A DNA stretch of 64,000 nucleotides from Salinispira sp. (GTDB lineage: Bacteria > Spirochaetota > Spirochaetia > DSM-27196 > Salinispiraceae): assembly GCA_965226555.1 (NCBI GenBank), contig CBDDDG010000002.1, positions 1 to 64,000 on the forward strand, in the 5' to 3' direction. Below are positions 4,911 to 51,210 of the stretch, piece by piece. Each line of letters opens with the position of its first letter. The stretch's first letter is position 1. The notes under the pieces were generated by a model. The model saw nothing but the letters and a program-made list of their open reading frames with translations. It searched no databases and was not told where the DNA came from. Both the position numbers and the translations under genes were made by a program.

Positions 4911-5240
4911 ACTGTTCCTCCGATAATATACGCTATCATTCCGAGAAATTTTTGCGGAAATTTCTCTTATTTTAGAGCGATCCGTTCTTCCCCGCTCCAT
5001 TCTGCACTGATCGAATTTCCTCATCGCTCAGCCCAGTAACCTTCCGAACGTCATCTGCTGAAAGTCCTATGGAAAACATACTGCGGGCGTTTTTTCTCCG
5101 CTCCTCAATATGCCCCTCAGCGCGGCCTGTTTGCAATCCTTCCTGCCGACCTTTCAGAATGCCTCTCTCCATGCCCTTCGCAATGCCTTCCCTTACGAAG
5201 GCGTTGGTCATGTTATATTGTCCGCATACTGTTTTCTCCT

Positions 5241-5472
5241 ACTGAAACTTTTGCATTGGAAAATTGTGCAGAGCACAATTTCCAGTAGCAAAAGTTTCAC
5301 ATTTGGCAGGCCTCGTTGCGCTTGGCATTCTCTCATTTTGTAGAAAGTTTTGCCACTGAAAAATTGTGCTCTGCACAATTTTTCAATGAGGATTCTCTCA
5401 TCTATACTCTTGATTCTCTCACGGTATAGAAAGTTTTGCCTCAGGCAAAACTTTGTTGCGGCAAAACTTTGT
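5241..5472. mobile_element. Compound palindromic element: 129-bp type II unit with a nested 103-bp type I unit
   Basis: Absent from the paralogue at 41180-41200. Removing it restores FP-R-GENS in frame; no target duplication. Confidence 0.85.
5355..5457. mobile_element. 103-bp type I palindromic element nested in a hairpin loop
   Basis: ACTGAAAAATTGTGC..GGCAAAACTTTGTT. Removing it restores the hairpin GTAGAAAGTTTTGCC-GC-GGCAAAACTTTGT. Confidence 0.85.
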
Positions 5473-5537
5473 CTAGGGAACAGTTCCCTGTCAATTTTCT
5501 CAAACTGTTCATACAGTTTTGGATCTAGATCTTTGAT

Positions 5538-5640
5538 ACCGAAAATTGTGCTCCGCACAATTTTCTAATCTGGATTCTCTCATCTCTATTCGTGATTCTC
5601 TCAAGATATAGAAAGTTTTGCCTGTGGCAAAACTTTTGTT
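5538..5640. mobile_element. 103-bp type I palindromic element
   Basis: ACCGAAAATTGTGC..GGCAAAACTTTTGTT. Removing it restores the Rpn codons GY|IKDL; no TSD. Confidence 0.88.
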
Positions 5641-5736
5641 ATAACCTAGCACACTCTCTGCTAGATCAGTAAAGTCTTGTGAAGACAGACCGTTCAGGAG
5701 CTGCGCAATCTCTTTCAGCCCCTCAGCATCCATCTC

Positions 5737-5839
5737 ACTGAAAATTGTGCTCTGCACAATTTTCAAATGAGGATTCTCTCATCTATACTCTTGATTCTCT
5801 CAAGGTATAGAAAGTTTTTCCTAAAGGAAAAACTTTGTT
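5737..5839. mobile_element. 103-bp type I palindromic element
   Basis: ACTGAAAATTGTGC..AAAACTTTGTT. Removing it gives GAGATAAT|GAGATG, as in the empty site at about 41028-41041. Confidence 0.9.
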
Positions 5840-6474
5840 ATTATCTCGCATTATATACCACAACGCAGTCGATGTATATCGTTTTTCATCGGAACGCCAT
5901 GCCAACTGCTTTTTGTCCATTCGCCCCAGATCGCGCACAATGCCTTCCGCTCGGGGTCTGACAGGAAGGGGGCGCTGACAACGAGATCGCAGTGAAGGTT
6001 CTTTTTTCCTGCAATGTAGCTGGGGGTTTCAATGCGGATTTTGTCCAGGTCCATCTTGGCAAGTGTTGTATCCTCACAGAACAGTCGCAGCAGGTCGGGA
6101 ACCATCAGGGGGTTTTTGTAAGCAATCTTGAAGGCTAGGTCGTGGATGTGGCCTGTGCTGTGGGATGATTTTTTCATAAACATTCCTCCTATATATATCA
6201 AACGGGAGAAATGCTATTTCTGAATATGTTTTCTGAAAAAAATTTATTTTTTTTCGGGATGGGGCAGGCGGGGGTTTCACATGTTTGAATTTTGAAGGTT
6301 GTGCATTAAAATACTGCCCAATCCCCTTTATTTTGTCAATTTTCGCCACCGGAAGGCGTAAATGATCCCAAATGTCAGATGGTGGAATTGCCGTGCAACG
6401 GTCTCTGTATGAGAAGACATTGATTACCTAACTTGTCGAGTTAACACTACCGGAGGATGCCAACATGCATGCTC

Positions 6475-11224: not shown

Positions 11225-12476
11225 TGGGATATTAAGGTTTGAACAGACCCCACTTTGACCTATTATGCGATCATTTCTTCCGAGTGCCAAGCCCTCCATC
11301 GCTCAAGCGTCGGCCGTGTGAGCCGTTGCTCCATTATGATCGGCTTGAGCCGGAGAATATCACTATCCACATTGGTATTCCGCTGCCTCAAAAGATCCAG
11401 CGGAGTCCCTTTGCGGTAGGTGTTGAACCGCCGGTAATTGAAATCTATCTGATACTCCTCGGCTTCCTTAAGAAACTCATTGAGCTTTGGATTCATCACC
11501 TGACTGTAGAACTCATCCTCAATGAGCCGGTGCGAGGACTCGACAGAACTGTTCCATGTGCAATGCCCGGGCGGAATACGCCGATACTCGACACCCGCCT
11601 GTATGAGCGCCTGCTCAAACCCCGACGTTCGGGTCTTGCTCAGATGCCGAACGGTGAACTCTGCCCCGTTATCGGTCTGAACCGTTATGCCGTTGACAAG
11701 GTCTCCGCCGCGATTCCGCAGGTGCTCCAGCAGGTACTCGGCGAACAAGGTTGTTACCATACTGCTCTTCTCATTGGCGAAGGCGTACCACAGAGCCCCT
11801 GTCGCCCGATCCCGGGCGGTTATCTGGTACTTCGGAACGTCTAAACACTTCTGAGAAAACCGCATAGCGGGAATGTCCGTCAGATACTTGATATCAATCT
11901 GAATGCACTCGCCGAACTTCATCCTGTCGGTTACCTCCCGCAAATCTCTCTTGGGTAGCGCCTTCGGCTTCTTTGTTTTCCGCGCCCCTATCTGCTTTAG
12001 CGTCTTGATAATCGTCGGCAGGCTGTACTTCCCGCCAACTTCCGTCTGCAACTGCTTTTGCACCTGAGTTCCAATGATTTTGTTGTGATTCCGATTCTTG
12101 GTCTGGGCAAGACTCTCGAGATGACACCGGTGCCCGAATTTCATCTTCATCGGATGATTGGTCGTGCCCCGCTTTTTGTCTTCAAGCCCCTCGCCGGATT
12201 CAAAGCGCCGAACCCACCGCCGCACCGTGTTGCGCGACACCTCGAACTCCCGAGCAGCCGCCTTGATCGAATGCTCCTGGGCATACCGAACCATCCGCAA
12301 CCGCCAATCATACATCGAAGCCGCCTGATACTTCCGAGACTTGAGATGATACTGAGAATATGTGATACTACTGTTCACTGTTTCCCTCCTTTTATGTTTT
12401 ATACAACCCCCAGTGTATACGAATAACCTTCGTTTTACACTGGGGAGGAGGGGTCTGTCCAAAGGTTTATATCCCA
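11225..12476 (-). mobile_element. IS481-family insertion sequence
   Basis: Imperfect 27-bp TIRs TGGGATATTAAGGTTTGAACAGACCCC / TGGGATATAAACCTTTGGACAGACCCC; 15-bp direct repeat AAAAAGATAATTATC at 11210-11224 and 12477-12491. Confidence 0.88.
11263..12378 (-). CDS. IS481-like DDE transposase
   Basis: N-terminal HTH (IKAAAREFEVSRNTVRRW); QIDIK, QTDNGAEF and VESSHR DDE motifs; GTG start after AGGAGG. Confidence 0.9.
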   Translation of the reverse strand: MNSSITYSQYHLKSRKYQAASMYDWRLRMVRYAQEHSIKAAAREFEVSRNTVRRWVRRFESGEGLEDKKRGTTNHPMKMKFGHRCHLESLAQTKNRNHNKIIGTQVQKQLQTEVGGKYSLPTIIKTLKQIGARKTKKPKALPKRDLREVTDRMKFGECIQIDIKYLTDIPAMRFSQKCLDVPKYQITARDRATGALWYAFANEKSSMVTTLFAEYLLEHLRNRGGDLVNGITVQTDNGAEFTVRHLSKTRTSGFEQALIQAGVEYRRIPPGHCTWNSSVESSHRLIEDEFYSQVMNPKLNEFLKEAEEYQIDFNYRRFNTYRKGTPLDLLRQRNTNVDSDILRLKPIIMEQRLTRPTLERWRAWHSEEMIA

Positions 12477-12510
12477 AAAAAGATAATTATCGCTGCGCAA
12501 AGAGTACCAG

Positions 12511-22824: not shown

Positions 22825-23337
22825 ATGGAAGTAAATTTTATCGAATTATTCATTTTTTTGGTTGGTGTTATCATTGTTAATATAGTAGTTGGGAAAATTA
22901 TTGCCCCATCAAAAAAACAATTCGATGAGCACTATGAAAAATTTGAAAATAAATTGGGGAATGAAATTCAACAGGTTGACAATAGAATTCAACAGGTTGA
23001 AAGTAAATTAGGGAATGAAATTCAACAGGTTGAAAGTAAATTAGGGAATGAAATTCAACAGGTTGAAAGTAAATTAGGGAATGAAATTCAACAGGTTGAA
23101 AGTAAATTAGGGAATGAAATTCAACAGGTTGAAAGTAAATTAGGGAATGAAATTCAACAGGTTGAAAATAAATTGGAAAATAGAATTCAGCAGGTGAAGA
23201 CTGAGATAATAGCACAGATACAGTACACACATACGCGATTAGACCAAATCATTAATTATCTTATGAATCAGGAGAATCAAGAAAATCAAAAAAGATCACA
23301 TCTCAGTGAATCAGAAAGTCCAAAAAAAATGGCATAA
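22825..23337 (+). CDS. Membrane-anchored coiled-coil protein with 11-aa tandem repeats
   Basis: GGAGG RBS; N-terminal TM; five exact 33-bp repeats encoding ESKLGNEIQQV. Confidence 0.8.
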   Translation: MEVNFIELFIFLVGVIIVNIVVGKIIAPSKKQFDEHYEKFENKLGNEIQQVDNRIQQVESKLGNEIQQVESKLGNEIQQVESKLGNEIQQVESKLGNEIQQVESKLGNEIQQVENKLENRIQQVKTEIIAQIQYTHTRLDQIINYLMNQENQENQKRSHLSESESPKKMA

Positions 23338-36438: not shown

Positions 36439-37995
36439 ATGTTTACATTCTTCTGCAATGTCGATATTATGTGCTATACTCTAAGAAAGACTTCAATTGG
36501 AGGTAATGTATGCAGATTGTAAGCATTAACCAAAAAACAAGAAACCTTTCTACGCCCTCTGTGCTGTGGGGTTTTCTTATCATACTGACAGTGCTCATAG
36601 CGGCCTGCCCAATGCCGGAACCGGAACCAATTACGGAACCGGAGCCCATGGACATGGATACATCGCCCTTAATAGGCGTGTGGACCGCGGATGGTTATAC
36701 CATAGAATTCACCGCCACAACGTACATAGACAAGTTTTCGGGTTTGACCTGTGATTACACGGATAACGGAAACTCAATTACGTTCAGTAATTGTATGGGA
36801 TTAGAAGGAGCGGAAAACCTTAATGGGGCAACGGTAGAGTATACCATTGATGGAGATACCTTAACATTTGATGGCACTGCCTATACCCGGCAGAATTCAG
36901 ATGTACCTGAACCAACCGTGCCGGGCACCATGGCTGCTCCAACCTTTGAAGTGGGGAATAAGCAACTAACGGTTAACTGGACTCCGCCGGAAGAAACCGG
37001 CGATAGTGAAATTACCGCGTACCATGTGCAGCACAAACAAAGCAACGGAGAATGGCCAGCGGACGACACCGCCGCTATTACTCCTCCTACCTCACGCTCC
37101 ACCATCATTACAGGGCTGACAAACGGCAACCCCTACGATGTGCGGCTGCGCGCGGTCAATGCGCAGGGTTCGGGGAACTGGTCGGAATCTTCCACAGAAA
37201 CCCCTATTACCGTTTCCTTGGCGCCGACTGCGTTCATGCTCACAGCGGGAAATACGACAATTACCGCAACATGGGCTGCACCGACCGATACTGGCGACAG
37301 CGCCATTATTCGCTATGAACTGCAACATCGCGAAGTTGGAACAAGCACGTGGGAAGCTACTGTTTCTATTGCTGTGTATGCCAACCACACCTACACCCAC
37401 CTCATCCCCAACCTGACAAACGGCACCGAGTACGAGGTGCGGGTCTACGCTGTCAATACAGAGGGCAATGGCAACCCAGCGACTGGCACCGCAACCCCCG
37501 AAATCCCCGCTACCGTTCCCAGCGCTCCGAATGCTCCTACGCTCACAGCCGGAAACACCGAACTTGAGGTAGCATGGACAGCGCCCGATGATGACGGTGG
37601 CAGCGCCATTACCGGGTACAAAGTGCAACACAGAGTAAACACCGCCAGCGAATGGTTAACGTCCGACACAGCGAACATCGACACTATTACTGATGGTACT
37701 GCTACAAGCTCCACCATTACCGGGCTGACAAACGGCAATAGTTACGATGTACGGGTGCGCGCCGTCAACGCTGTGGGTGATGGCGGCTGGTCGGTATCTG
37801 CCACTCTAACCCTTTCTACTGCTCCCGCCGCTCCAACCGGTCTGACGCTCGTACCAGTGCACCAATCTATTACAGCCGCATGGACAGCGCCGAATAACAA
37901 CGGCGGCAGTGCCATTACCGGGTATGACCTGCAGTTTCGCGTATCCGCAGCAGCTCTGGTAGAGGGCGACTGGCAGACCGAAACTACTACTAATA

Positions 37996-39335
37996 GAAAC
38001 CTTTGAATAACTCCATTATATCTGCCGGTAGTCTTTTTTCCACGCAGAAAAAATTATTCATCGTTTTTCACGTTATTCTCTTCAGCATCCTCCGTCTTTT
38101 TTCGGCGCGATACGCGCTATATTCGTTCTTTTTTTCATCTTTTTTCAGTATTTCCCTCATTTCCGGCAGCAGTACCGCCATAAGGGCACAGCTATCCTGT
38201 TGTTATGCCGCAACCGCAGAGTTTTCCGGCGCCATGTTCCCCATTCGCCGTTTCATGCCGATCATCTGTTTCAGATTATACATAATCGCCATACACATAA
38301 ACCGACTCTGATTCCTCTGAACTCCCATATACCGCGCCTTTCTTGCGCCGCAATGGAGTTTGCTCAGCCCAAAAAACCGCTCCACCGTATTCCTTACGCG
38401 CGACCGCCCGTAATTCGCCTGCTTCTGCTCATCGGTTAACGGTGTGTTCCGATACGCCCGCTCATGTATTTGATTCTCTATGCCCATCTCCTCAAGCATC
38501 GCAGCAATCGCTTTACTCCGGTACGCGGCATCCGCGTACACCACCGTCTCATTTCCCATAATCAATTCGCCAAATAGTTTGCTGTCATGAATATTGGCCG
38601 CAGTCACCAGCAGTTTCTTCGCCCGTCCCTTCTCATTTACCGTCACGTGTATCTTGAAACCGTAGGTTGTTCGTACCGTTCCATCGCCTCCCTTCTTACT
38701 CGCGTAGGCCGCTTCAGGATCCTGTGTCGATTCTCCTGCGTCATTTTTTTTCTTCCGATGCCGCGAAGCCTGTATGACACTCGCATCAATTATGCTGACT
38801 GTGCCCCGGTGCACTTCACAATCCTGCGTGTCCAACTGCGCATTCACCGTGTCCAAGAGCGCACTGAGAATATTCTTACGGGTCAGTTGTTCCCGAAACC
38901 GCCATATCGTGGAATGATCGGGAGTATCATCGAGAACATTGAGCCCCACAAAACGCTTGTATGCCAAGTCGCAGGCAAGCGCATTTTCCATGCCTTCATC
39001 GCTGAGATTCTGCCACGATTGCAGCAACAGCACTTTGAACATCATAACCGGATGATATCCTTTCGCGCCCATCGATTTGTTGTTGATAGCACAGAGCATC
39101 TCCCCAATTTCCTTCCAATTGATCAGTTCATACAGGCTATCGAAGCGTTTCAGCGCTTTACTTTCCTGAATACCCTGATTGATCAGCGATCCATGATGTT
39201 CTTTCCAATTATTTCCCATTGTGTTCTCCTGTTTCAGCGCCGGACAGCGCGCAATACAACCCGATTGCTCATTCCCAGCTCTCTGTGTGAATTTTCTTCA
39301 AAATACCATTATTCCCGATGATGTGCAAAGGTTTC
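37996..39335 (-). mobile_element. IS5-family insertion sequence
   Basis: Terminal IR GAAACCTTTG / CAAAGGTTTC around a transposase gene. Confidence 0.88.
38203..39219 (-). CDS. IS5-family transposase
   Basis: PDHSTIWRFR, IIDAS, YGFKIH, YADAAY, RNTVERFF. Confidence 0.93.
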   Translation of the reverse strand: MGNNWKEHHGSLINQGIQESKALKRFDSLYELINWKEIGEMLCAINNKSMGAKGYHPVMMFKVLLLQSWQNLSDEGMENALACDLAYKRFVGLNVLDDTPDHSTIWRFREQLTRKNILSALLDTVNAQLDTQDCEVHRGTVSIIDASVIQASRHRKKKNDAGESTQDPEAAYASKKGGDGTVRTTYGFKIHVTVNEKGRAKKLLVTAANIHDSKLFGELIMGNETVVYADAAYRSKAIAAMLEEMGIENQIHERAYRNTPLTDEQKQANYGRSRVRNTVERFFGLSKLHCGARKARYMGVQRNQSRFMCMAIMYNLKQMIGMKRRMGNMAPENSAVAA

Positions 39336-39826
39336 AAGTAATACAAGCTACCGCATTACGGCATTGAAAGACAGTACCGCGCTGGCAAACGGCACCGCGT
39401 ATAATGTGGAAGTATGGGTTCGCGCACAGAACGCGGCGGGCGATGGCGCGTGGCTGAAATCGACTCCTTCTGCCTCGGTAACTCCTGCTGATGTTGTTCC
39501 CAACAAGCCCGCACCTCCAACACTTACATTAGATAGTACGGGTGGATTTACTATTGCATGGACAGCGCCGACCGACAATGGCGGCAGTGCCATTACCGCG
39601 TATCAACTGCGATTGAGCGTAAATGATGCAGACTGGACTGAAAGTGCTATTTTGAACGTTATCTTGAGCACATATAATGCTTCAAGCAATACTAACTCAG
39701 GCGACACATACGTGATGCAAGTACGTGCCATTAACGCTACGGGTAATAGTGAGTGGTCGGAATCGTCTAATACGCTTACTATTCCATAACTGCACGCTGT
39801 AGACGCCGGCGCGGTACATGAGTGAG

Positions 39827-39910
39827 CGCGCCGGCTGGTCGGAGGCTCGCGCCTCCTGGGCTGGTCGCGCTTCCGCGCTGCTCGCCCGGGCATCCGGCTT
39901 GCCATGCGGC
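39827..39910. repeat. GC-rich hairpin repeat (second family)
   Basis: GGCTGGTCGGAGGC-TCGC-GCCTCC..GCTCGCCCGGGCATCCGG shared with 41505-41700. Confidence 0.8.
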
Positions 39911-40327: not shown

Positions 40328-41482
40328 ATGAAAAAATCATCCCACAGCACAGGCCACATCCACGACATAGCCTTCAAGATCGCCTACAAAAACCCCCGGA
40401 TGATTCCCGACCTACTGCGGCTGTTCTGTGAGGATACAACGCTTACCAAGCTGGACATGGACAAAATCCGCATTGAAACCCCCAGCTACATTGCAGGAAA
40501 AAAGAACCTTCACTGCGATCTCGTTGTCAGCGCCCCCTTCCTGTCAGACCCCGACCGGAAAGCCCTTTTTATTACTGAAAATTTTGCTCCGCAAAATTTT
40601 CCAATGAGGATTCTCTTATCTATACTCTTGATTCTCTCACGGTATAGAAAGTTTTGCCTTGGAAAATTGTGCAAGCACAATTTCCAGTAGCAAAACTTTC
40701 GTATTGAACACAAAAGCTACCAGCACAAACATGCGCTCACTCAGATTGATAATTATCAGCATGCCCTCAGAAACAGCAATGTGTATAATGAAAATGATGC
40801 TATCTATATACTTCTGTTCTACCACGGAAAAAAGGAATGGAACCTCCCACGCTCATTTTACAGTTCACATGGAAATCCAACCTCCGAATCCCTTACCGAA
40901 GGCACGGTGGATGTCAAGGTGAAAGTGTCGTACATTGTGCGCGATCTGAGGCGAATGGACAAGAAGCAGTTGGCATTGCGCTCCGATGAAAAACGATATA
41001 CATCGACTGCATTGTGGTATATTATGAGAGATAATGAGATGGACACTGAGGGGCTGAAAGAGATTGCGCAGCTCCTGAACGGTCTGTCATCACAAGACTT
41101 TACTGATCTGGCAGAAAGTGTGTTAGGCTATCTAAAAGATTTGGGACTGTATGAACAGTTTGAGAAAATTAACAGGGAACTGTACCCTGAAGGAGAAAAC
41201 AGTATGCGGACATATAACATGACCAACGCCTTCGTCAGGGAAGGCATTGCGAAGGGCCGGATTGAGGGTCTTGAACAGGGAATGGAGAAAGGTATTCTGA
41301 AAGGCCTTGAGCAAGGACAAGCTGAGAACCAGCGTGAGATTGCATTCAAAATGCTCAGGAAGGGTATGTCGATGGATATTATTCATGAGTTAACCGAGCT
41401 CAGCGAAGATGAAATTCGAGCATTTCAGAAAAACGGCCAGAAAAATGGCAGGGGAAACGGTAGGAAAAACGATAAAGAGTAG
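40328..41482 (+). pseudogene. Rpn/YhgA-like nuclease, locus 2, with one 129-bp insertion
   Basis: AGGAGG RBS; HDIAFK..CD..KALFI|IEHKS..LFYHGKKEW..EG-rich tail; in-frame TAG inside the insert. Confidence 0.9.
40574..40702. mobile_element. 129-bp type I palindromic element variant
   Basis: Same spacer as the 103-bp units, with an extra hairpin nested in the right arm. Confidence 0.88.
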
Positions 41483-41504
41483 CAACGCAGCCACGTCGGC
41501 GTTG

Positions 41505-41700
41505 CGCCTCCTGGGCTGGTCGGAGGCTTGCGCCTCCTGCTCGCCATGCGTCCGGGCTGGTCGGAGGCTTGCGCCTCCTGCTCGCCATGCGTCCGGGCTG
41601 GTCGGAGGCTTGCGCCTCCTGCTCGCCATGCGTCCGGGCTGGTCGCGCTCCGCGCTGCTCGCCCGGGCATCCGGTTCGCCATGCATCCGGGGCTGGTCGG
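41505..41700. repeat. Three tandem 41-bp GC-rich hairpin units plus a flanking module
   Basis: CGGAGGCTTGCGCCTCCTGCTCGCCATGCGTCCGGGCTGGT at 41521, 41562 and 41603. Confidence 0.92.
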
Positions 41701-49714: not shown

Positions 49715-49981
49715 TTAATGCGATCCGTTCCGCACTGTCCGCATTTCCTCATCGCTCAGCCCGGTAATCCTCTGAACAGCCTCAGTTGACAAGCCTTCCG
49801 AAAACATACTGCGGGCCGTTTCTCGAATGCCTCTCGCCATTCCCAGCTCAAGACCTTCAACCTTGCCTCTCTCCATTCCTTCCGCAAGACCTTCAACCTT
49901 GCCTCTCTCCATTCCTTCCGCAAGACCTTCAACCCGTCCTTGGTTGACAAACCAATCACTCATCTGAACTTTTTTCATCAT
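49715..49981 (-). CDS. Putative RpnS-like C-terminal small protein (88 aa)
   Basis: AGGAG upstream of ATG 49981; intact frame with (VEGLAEGMERGK) repeats and a C-terminal ITGLS.EE motif. Confidence 0.6.
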   Translation of the reverse strand: MMKKVQMSDWFVNQGRVEGLAEGMERGKVEGLAEGMERGKVEGLELGMARGIRETARSMFSEGLSTEAVQRITGLSDEEMRTVRNGSH

Positions 49982-49994
49982 AACCCTTTCTCCT

Positions 49995-50124
49995 CCAGAA
50001 ACTTTTGCATTGGAAAATTGTGCAGAGCACAATTTCCAGTAGCAAAAGTTTCACATTTGGATAACTCTATGTGCTTAGCATTCTCGCATTTTGTAGAAAG
50101 TTTTGCCTGTGGCAAAACTTTGTT
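49995..50124. mobile_element. 130-bp type II palindromic element
   Basis: Removing it restores N-P-E-G-E-R in frame; no TSD. Confidence 0.88.
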
Positions 50125-50549
50125 TCGGGATTAATTTCCCTGTTGATTTTTTCAAAGCGTGTATCCAGTTTCAAGTCTTCATCGCCTGTCTTACTGACTT
50201 TCCGCATAATATAGCACAGGGCTCCCCCTGTCAACACAACCCCATCTGACCCACGGGTAAACTCCTCCTCACTCATCCTATTCACATCGACCATAACAGG
50301 CCTATTGAGAACCTTTGGCCTCGCAAGGTATTTTTTCATCATTGTGTACAATTTTTCCGGTATGTGTGTATGCACATCCCCTGAACTGTAGAAACTGAGA
50401 TCTCCTTCCCATAGTGCTTCGCCATGATACCATAGAACCAGAACAAGAAGGTCGGTCTGCGCCTGAAATGTCCTGCTGTTTATGAGGGCTTTCTGGTATT
50501 TATCGAACTGTTCGCTGACCTTCGGATCAAACATGCTTTTGTGCTCAAT

Positions 50550-50606
50550 ACGAAAGTTTTGCTACTGGAAATTGTGCTTGCACAATTTTCCAAGGCAAAA
50601 CTTTGT
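50550..50606. mobile_element. 57-bp nested palindrome replacing about 70 Rpn codons
   Basis: Reverse complement matches 40649-40702; joins HDIAFK directly to IEHKS. Confidence 0.85.
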
Positions 50607-50745
50607 CTTAAACGCAATATCATGGATATTGTATCCGGCATTACTCATACATACCTCCTGTTATATCTATAACGGGTAAACTGTCATTTTTAACTATGTT
50701 TTTTGAGAAAATTTGAAAGAATTTTGCAAAATGTGTGAATTTTTT

Positions 50746-50995: not shown

Positions 50996-51095
50996 ACAAA
51001 GTTTTGCATTGAAAATTGTGCTTGCACAATTTCCAGGAGCAAAACTTTCTATGAAATAGGAGAATGCTAAGCACAAAGACAGCATTCCAAATGGG
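50996..51095. repeat. Type II element half in the opposite orientation
   Basis: ACAAAGTTTTGC..GCAAAACTTTCTA..GAGAATGCTAAGCAC..CCAAATG matches the reverse complement of 50055-50124. Confidence 0.85.
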
Positions 51096-51210
51096 ATATT
51101 AGCCTGATCCTGCCGCATGGCGAGCCGGGCGACATGAGGGCAAGAGCGAGCAGCCCCGCGCCTGCCTGAGTTGACTTGCCATTTTTCAATAACTACTGCG
51201 GGTTATGAAA

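Follow-up and report, generated by a model that had tools for sequence, protein, structure and literature searches.

A census of prokaryotic MITEs relates them to IS630, IS5/IS1106 and IS110, records many in Spirochaetes and places about 90% of them in intergenic DNA (PMC11602168, available in part). The element analysed here agrees with these MITEs in being short and non-coding, in having inverted ends and a target duplication, and in occurring in hundreds of mostly intergenic copies; a partner insertion sequence (IS) with matching ends is likewise found in the same genome. It differs in that both ends are themselves hairpins, in that it appears from its sequence to be a new family, and in that about a quarter of its clusters (114 of 427) touch one gene family, with which it has multiplied.

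The genes of that family encode Rpn proteins (YhgA-like, PF04754), which have been described with a PD-(D/E)XK-type motif, an internal ribosome-binding site, a small C-terminal ORF with four-residue repeats and arrays arising from tandem duplication (PMC10400941, PMC5350276; both available in part). All of these features recur here. However, at least 67 intact full-length genes and 158 ORFs with the tail were counted, whereas 26 copies are given as a high example in the available part of PMC10400941, and in the present genome leaders and tails are shared across subfamilies, with near-free reassortment within them. Exchange between diverged sequences by means of an anchor and a few matching bases is known from ectopic gene conversion and homology-facilitated illegitimate recombination (HFIR), the latter concerning transforming DNA and proceeding at low efficiency (PMC6382021, available in part). 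The exchange proposed below is similar, but would take place within one genome, between paralogues that are 33% identical as proteins, and would move a 130-nt insert.

The element also resembles REP/RAYT and IS200/IS605 palindrome elements in being a short hairpin-rich repeat, but a 5-bp duplication is present and their Y1 transposase (PF01797) gave 0 matches in the 93.5% complete genome. Mobile introns and inteins insert at conserved catalytic motifs of diverged homologues and are copied into empty alleles by homing. Here too an insert lies at a conserved catalytic motif in diverged homologues; unlike introns and inteins, it encodes no endonuclease, breaks the gene and gives no sign of drive in the single genome analysed. 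The element is of an ordinary mobile kind and the recombination of a known kind, and what is unusual is the large, finely shuffled Rpn family. A full-text search, largely of papers outside subscription and of main texts without supplements, found no published description of such a system.

The window, i.e. the whole stretch of 64,000 nucleotides that was analysed (G000:C2:1-64000), belongs to a 2.98-Mb genome in 26 contigs (bin completeness 93.5%, contamination 6.7%).

Interrupted Rpn loci in the window

The features of locus 3 are as follows.

49715..50648, minus strand: locus 3, a broken Rpn gene of subfamily B (start 50648, stop 49715) with two element insertions
50552..50605, no strand assigned: 52-nt hairpin remnant immediately before the IE-H-K-S codons
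49998..50122, minus strand: 125-nt MITE at P-x-G-E, site B753 (25-nt hairpin, spacer type 1, 52-nt hairpin)
49715..49994, minus strand: internal AGGAG (49994-49990) and intact C-terminal ORF (49981-49715, 88 aa)
50206..50234, minus strand: sigma-70 promoter-like site within the gene, near-consensus (11/12, consensus match only)
50997..51049, plus strand: hairpin of a further element copy in the upstream leader

Codons ~15-80 of locus 3 are deleted, and its middle part matches PF04754 at E 0.003, under the cut-off. The hairpin remnant is the leftover of a deletion that fused the codon-14 element (site B43) to the IE-site element (B241), with loss of ~198 nt of the gene; its left junction comes from the former, and the hairpin and right junction come from the latter. 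The undeleted two-element form of this allele is intact at G000:C26:16160-17766. The B753 MITE, the DNA fold of which is -32.4 kcal/mol (z -6.95), abuts the internal ribosome-binding site of the gene. By analogy with the system in the available part of PMC10400941, the 88-aa ORF is the predicted RpnS antitoxin, and the sigma-70-like site is a candidate RpnS promoter.

Loci 1 and 2 belong to subfamily A, and an IS5-family copy lies between them.

4972..6177, minus strand: locus 1, an Rpn gene with a ~240-nt deletion (junction 5942/5941) and three element insertions
5244..5471, minus strand: nested composite element at P-x-G-E of locus 1, against AGGAG 5240 (site A738)
5541..5637, minus strand: type-2 element, site A678, locus 1
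5740..5837, minus strand: type-2 element, site A582, locus 1
37996..39335, minus strand: IS5-family insertion sequence, 1,340 bp, transposase ORF 38203-39219, ends matching those of the MITE
40328..41482, plus strand: locus 2, an Rpn gene with one interruption (PF04754 25.5 bits, cut-off 21)
40577..40700, minus strand: 124-nt MITE, spacer type 2, at the IE site (A249) of locus 2

A preliminary description of the window had reported an identical palindrome ending just before the IEHKS codons of loci 2 and 3, and this holds: a 52-nt hairpin ends two bases upstream in both (ATT at 40703; ATT at 50549, minus strand), and the arms 40648-40717 and 50535-50604 are complementary at 99% over 70 nt. The element that it had placed at the P-x-G-E codons does abut the internal AGGAG in locus 1 (5240) and locus 3 (49994), but the insert in locus 1 is composite and nested, with a length of 228 nt; where this site holds a single element, it differs from that of locus 3 by at least 8 of ~124 nt. 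The deletion in locus 1 is also present, although it begins 10 nt before the IE site rather than about 9 bp from it, and its junction occurs once genome-wide. As had been stated, no housekeeping gene in the window holds an element; however, the IS5 copy splits an accessory fibronectin-type surface-protein gene (36510-39789), intact junction versions of which occur on C1 and C21.

The locus 2 piece scores under the family cut-off against TIGR01784. Its net insert at the IE site is 129 nt, which is in frame with a single amber stop; an insert of this length, with the frame kept, is found in 14/14 A copies with an element at this site (40577-40705 in locus 2). Other repeats were observed in the window. 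A GC-rich second short repeat family flanks many Rpn genes (39830-39910, 41490-41700 and 51110-51170), forms tandem runs and also occurs within an IS5-type gene. An IS481-like element of 1,252 bp, labelled from the look of its protein and not by a family scan, lies at 11225-12482 and in ~20 other places, with copies about 97.5-98% identical and unusually long target duplications of roughly 12-16 bp. A small ORF at 22825-23337 contains at least eight tandem 33-nt (11-residue) repeats.

The element and its probable partner insertion sequence

The element is a non-coding hairpin MITE of ~125 bp with 5-bp target duplications. Genome-wide, 427 clusters with at least two hairpin motifs were found, and 157 full elements, which consist of two hairpins and one of two spacers. 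The cores span 97-127 nt, contain stops in the gene frames examined and revealed no ORF, and the terminal inverted repeats are 11 nt long with one or two mismatches. Of the unique copies that lie outside Rpn genes and retain both ends (144), 40 carry a perfect 5-bp duplication, compared with a mean of 2.0 and a maximum of 7 after shuffling; enrichment of this order is seen at none of the other duplication lengths between 3 and 9. The target consensus is T-A-n-T-A in AT-rich DNA. A 2-bp TA duplication was rejected (25/144, against 23 after shuffling). No copy of the element was found in 40 relatives, and the hairpin pattern gave 0 exact matches in any genome of the species collection.

The resident IS5-family element matches NF033581 with 229.3 bits (cut-off 140). 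One of its ends agrees with the right end of the MITE at 11 of 12 nt, and 7 of the 10 copies with both ends have 5-bp duplications of the same kind as those of the MITE. Its transposase is therefore a candidate mobiliser, and on this sequence evidence it likely moves the MITE. A second IS5-type family also makes 5-bp duplications, but with a poorer end match. Searches of the 93.5% complete genome with PF13358 (IS630-type DDE), PF00239 (serine resolvase), PF01548 (IS110) and PF00078 (reverse transcriptase) gave no match; three tyrosine recombinases are present, and no link between them and the element was seen.

Two other accounts of the insert were considered and rejected. Rpn itself could act as a transposase with the hairpins as its ends, but the upstream boundaries are very variable and many copies have no hairpins; the available part of PMC10400941 reports no defined ends for Rpn. 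A coding insert maintained in frame is suggested by insert lengths of 129 and 102 nt, which are divisible by three, yet those examined contain stops; all in-gene inserts examined introduce stops or a frameshift.

Over the whole genome, 33 of 126 elements lie beside ribosome-binding sites, compared with 7% of intergenic controls, on crude gene calls. Interrupted non-Rpn genes numbered 31 candidates among 424 clusters; since the control gave 35 false positives in 182, no rate can be derived from this figure, and only IS transposases and one ATPase-like gene look real among the candidates.

Expansion, reassortment and coinciding insertion sites

The genome contains 90 matches to PF04754 above the cut-off, against 0-4 in each of 20 relatives, and a scan of metagenomes for close relatives of these Rpn genes returned 33 distant loci (24-62% over short parts). 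DNA similarity assigns loci or fragments to subfamilies A (82), C (52), F (22), E (17) and B (12), plus two others. Rpn coding DNA amounts to about 174 kb, or 5.8% of the genome. Protein identity is 33% between subfamilies A and B and 17% between A and F; tail types are common to A, B, C and E, and the 5' leader of A, B and C resembles the start of an F gene (a decayed F-type start). An element-free chimera was also observed at G000:C14:203011 (minus strand), in which the first 14 B codons pass into an A body across 7 nt of exact identity; the join coincides in position with element site B43. In RpnA, residues E82 and Q84 matter for activity (Kingston et al., PMC5350276, available in part), and these presumably correspond to the E-x-K/Q motif of the present Rpns.

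Linkage was analysed in 62 near-complete A copies (mean identity 91.7%, 140 SNPs). The r2 value falls from 0.33 at up to 3 nt to 0.12 at up to 10 nt and 0.046 at up to 20 nt, and is ~0.03 beyond; the 49 copies of subfamily C behave similarly. Many crossovers follow from such a decay, whereas short tracts do not follow from it alone. Identical tracts of at least 150 nt occur in 28 of 1,891 A pairs, compared with 0 after shuffling, and A SNPs favour third codon positions (72:28:28). The elements reassort in the same manner. No element is present in 33 of the 62 copies, each site is filled in 4-16 (6-26%), and four gametes are found at 10/10 pairs of A element sites. The IE-site element is unlinked from the SNP at -4 (7/7 filled, 26/22 empty) and from the SNP at +5 (9/5 filled, 27/21 empty). 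Both recA and mutS are present; loss of mismatch repair was rejected owing to the presence of mutS, the one mismatch-repair gene covered by the search. A usable SNP set was obtained for 5 of 12 non-Rpn families, four of which are ~80% identical and decay fast; decay is slower in the IS481-like family (97.5%). In the large accessory fn3 and DUF285 families, linkage is at background beyond 10-20 nt; none of these genes was among the MITE-interrupted genes found.

The distinct in-gene sites number 19 (five in A, three in B, two in C, two in E and seven in F, one F position being approximate). The preliminary description had suggested mapping insertion codons on a protein alignment; this alignment places A249, B241 and F256 at one position, immediately ahead of the Glu in the E-x-K/Q motif, and A738 and B753 at another, immediately ahead of the internal ribosome-binding site (RBS). 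A coincidence test was applied to the 19 sites of the five subfamilies, with target weighting by the measured 13-bp preference. Four exact cross-subfamily pairs were observed where uniform placement predicts 0.17 (p 0.0002) and weighting 0.58 (p 0.002), which bears out the earlier view that the shared sites are not random. Near matches within 15 nt are not above chance (7, against 5.0-6.3 expected). This excess is genuine provided that each event may be treated as an independent one.

The earlier proposal that Rpn genes are targeted was not supported. Independent sites number at least 245, and 19 of them fall in Rpn genes (7.8%), which make up 5.8% of the genome (p 0.22); the 226 other sites are a lower bound in which one cluster of 63 was merged. 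Rpn genes also hold ten insertions of five ordinary IS families (12 of 131 IS ends). The proposed spread of the element among Rpn copies was, in turn, borne out: since independent sites are not enriched, the large share of clusters in Rpn genes reflects the multiplication of a few alleles. At 17 of the 19 sites the element points with the gene (p 0.0007), the exceptions being the IE-site elements of A and B. Of 29 insertions belonging to four element types, including MITE, IS1182 and a 314-aa IS, 7 lie within ~60 nt of the internal RBS in A, B, C and E (Poisson p about 0.01, for a test chosen after the data had been seen).

In-gene junctions are mostly imperfect, with a perfect duplication in only 4 of 34 flank types. 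The net insert equals the element plus 5 nt at 10 of the 14 in-gene sites measured and plus 4 nt at the other four, and perfect and altered duplications occur at one site, so the imperfect junctions probably reflect later editing. A G at +2 is found in 9/9 in-gene right flanks and in 56/259 elsewhere; this base, too, may stem from later editing. At F site 655 (C14:105031, C10:561282, C16:90807 and C21:387681) the same junctions enclose type 1, type 2 or bare-hairpin interiors, which indicates that element interiors are swapped in place. Near codon 70 of F (C10:404476; C14:199800 and 201518), some copies carry the IS5 element and others a MITE at an identical or almost identical position.

All in-gene inserts are located upstream of where the antitoxin is predicted to start; with base composition taken into account, their absence from the antitoxin part does not reach significance (p 0.10). 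The small antitoxin frame, read from sequence only, is open over 64-118 codons in 27/27 copies with an element upstream, one of which has an aberrant tail end. It is plausible that silenced toxin copies are tolerated, or selected for, as had been surmised; tolerance in a redundant family is enough to account for the broken copies, and positive selection need not be assumed. Null alleles other than those with elements also occur: in subfamily C, a 153-nt deletion (codons ~41-92, in the catalytic region) is present in 7 of 49 copies on different contigs, having spread in the same manner as the element alleles.

Origin of the shared sites

The elements at the sites shared by A and B are best explained, with a probability of about 0.7, by one insertion per site and subsequent copying from paralogue to paralogue by short-homology gene conversion, including across subfamilies. 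Among the 157 full elements, the nearest whole-element neighbour of B241 is A249 (7 differences, against at least 15), and that of B753 is A738 (8-12 differences, against at least 12 for other groups). Of 29 type-2 elements, 15 have a hairpin orientation that the other 14 lack, and these 15 all occupy the IE site (14 in A, one in B). An altered right junction at the IE site is common to A, B and F. Furthermore, the right junction of B at the RBS site is not the usual target of B but equals the allele in 17 of 48 empty A copies. Local A-B identity is 18/20 at both shared sites (top 5%), compared with ranks of 0.18-0.47 at the four unshared A/B sites, and the IE site falls within the longest word, of 17 nt, that A and B share exactly over their first 790 nt. 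Inheritance from a common ancestor of A and B was rejected, as the proteins are 33% alike, the elements ~94% alike and the element was not found in 40 relatives. The reading is built on the 5-bp duplications, the matching IS ends, the reassortment of elements and SNPs, the features shared by A and B and the peak in A-B identity. The preliminary description had set against its own proposal the case of duplication or gene conversion of long identical flanks; gene conversion is indeed favoured by the data, but the flanks are short (17 nt exact at the IE site), not long.

Several observations count against copying between subfamilies. The spacer of B241 is identical to that of an intergenic copy and 4 nt from that of A249, while the spacer of B753 is 1-2 nt from that of B43 and 7-8 nt from that of A738. 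The IE-site element of F is of a different type and runs in the opposite direction, B copies are B-type in sequence right up to the two junctions, and no chimera of A and B with a crossover at either shared site was found. The scarcity of perfect duplications at in-gene junctions and the constant G at +2 likewise speak against the reading. The genome-wide enrichment beside ribosome-binding sites could alone favour the second shared site, and the orientation bias at 17 of 19 sites is left unexplained by conversion. In addition, the A/B homologies (7-17 nt) are shorter than the minimum of 25-35 bp quoted for RecA, although anchor-assisted exchange with 3-10 bp has been described in the same source (PMC6382021, available in part).

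Under the preferred reading, a MITE, likely moved by the resident IS5-family transposase, would have landed once at each of the two sites and would then have been copied between paralogues, also across subfamilies, by gene conversion on short shared DNA. Each transfer would have combined a long homologous anchor (element, leader or tail) with a 7-17-nt match at the other end, and later B-to-B conversion would have trimmed the donor flanks. Broken copies would persist owing to the redundancy of the family and the surviving antitoxin. The IE-site element of F may have been transferred and had its interior swapped afterwards, or it may have been inserted separately. Transfer across the 33% identity gap is likely.

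Alternatively, the transposase may prefer two motifs, or DNA just upstream of the RBS, and have hit A, B and F separately, with selection keeping toxin-silencing alleles and conversion spreading them solely within subfamilies. The deviating type and direction of the F element, the A/B spacer mismatches, the intact B flanks and the enrichment on the RBS side, including the insertions clustered near internal RBSs, would all agree with this. It is nevertheless rather unlikely, as the 13-bp preference leaves four exact matches improbable (p 0.002; under sharper weighting it does not exceed 0.008), that preference gives low scores to the IE sites of B and F and to the RBS site of B, and the nearest-neighbour result, the private hairpin orientation and the shared junction bases are left unexplained. 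An artefact, through mis-assembly or mis-polishing of ~190 similar loci or through mixed strains in the bin, is the least credible account and was given hardly any weight. The bin statistics leave room for it, and Rpn haplotypes per locus rest on one assembly, as Rpn DNA collapses to short contigs in short-read data, which did not confirm them. However, six public runs contain the window stretch (none recorded as RNA), and in the contigs compared from four of them both filled and empty alleles and the SNP alleles were found. Unique window DNA shows 0 differences in 8,104 nt from the contigs of run X1, possibly the source sample, and run X4, from a separate study of a ~97% identical strain, has the same depth pile-up over Rpn and the element. 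The long identical tracts and the codon-position bias of the SNPs also argue against an artefact, and polishing neither adds nor removes 130-nt inserts. Some contig joints bypass the element, but their depth is that expected from empty paralogues, so they do not point to excision.

Homing driven by Rpn itself, as the preliminary description had proposed, would have active Rpn cut family members and repair switch template, with element-bearing, nuclease-dead alleles acting as donors. At least 67 intact Rpn genes are available for this, the observed exchanges need very short homology, and RpnA increases recombination that does not depend on RecA, and the ends it produces can serve as primers for template switching (PMC5350276, available in part). 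Yet the same source describes RpnA as having little if any sequence specificity, which speaks against a site-specific role, and filled alleles remain unfixed at 6-26% (just 4-16 of 62 copies) in A. Linkage also reaches background within 10-20 nt in five non-Rpn repeat families (~80% identical, a weak control), and recA and mutS are present, so that this account is very unlikely. A wider proposal treats the family as a self-shuffling repertoire, in which breaks by its own nucleases and template switching with fewer than 20 matching bases reassort ~190 loci on the scale of codons, and MITE inserts act as copyable, removable off-switches that cross subfamilies at the catalytic motif and the antitoxin start; this is distinctly doubtful. 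A role of Rpn in the shuffling is conceivable, although site-specific targeting and Rpn-driven homing are unsupported.

The findings caution that no targeting enzyme is needed for inserts to coincide at one conserved motif in distant paralogues: only at such motifs do these genes still have enough DNA in common to recombine. They also describe an extreme Rpn expansion, with copies near linkage equilibrium at 10-20 nt. This genome therefore provides a natural system for asking how little homology moves a 130-nt insert, and whether the reported promotion of recombination by Rpn shapes genomes in vivo.
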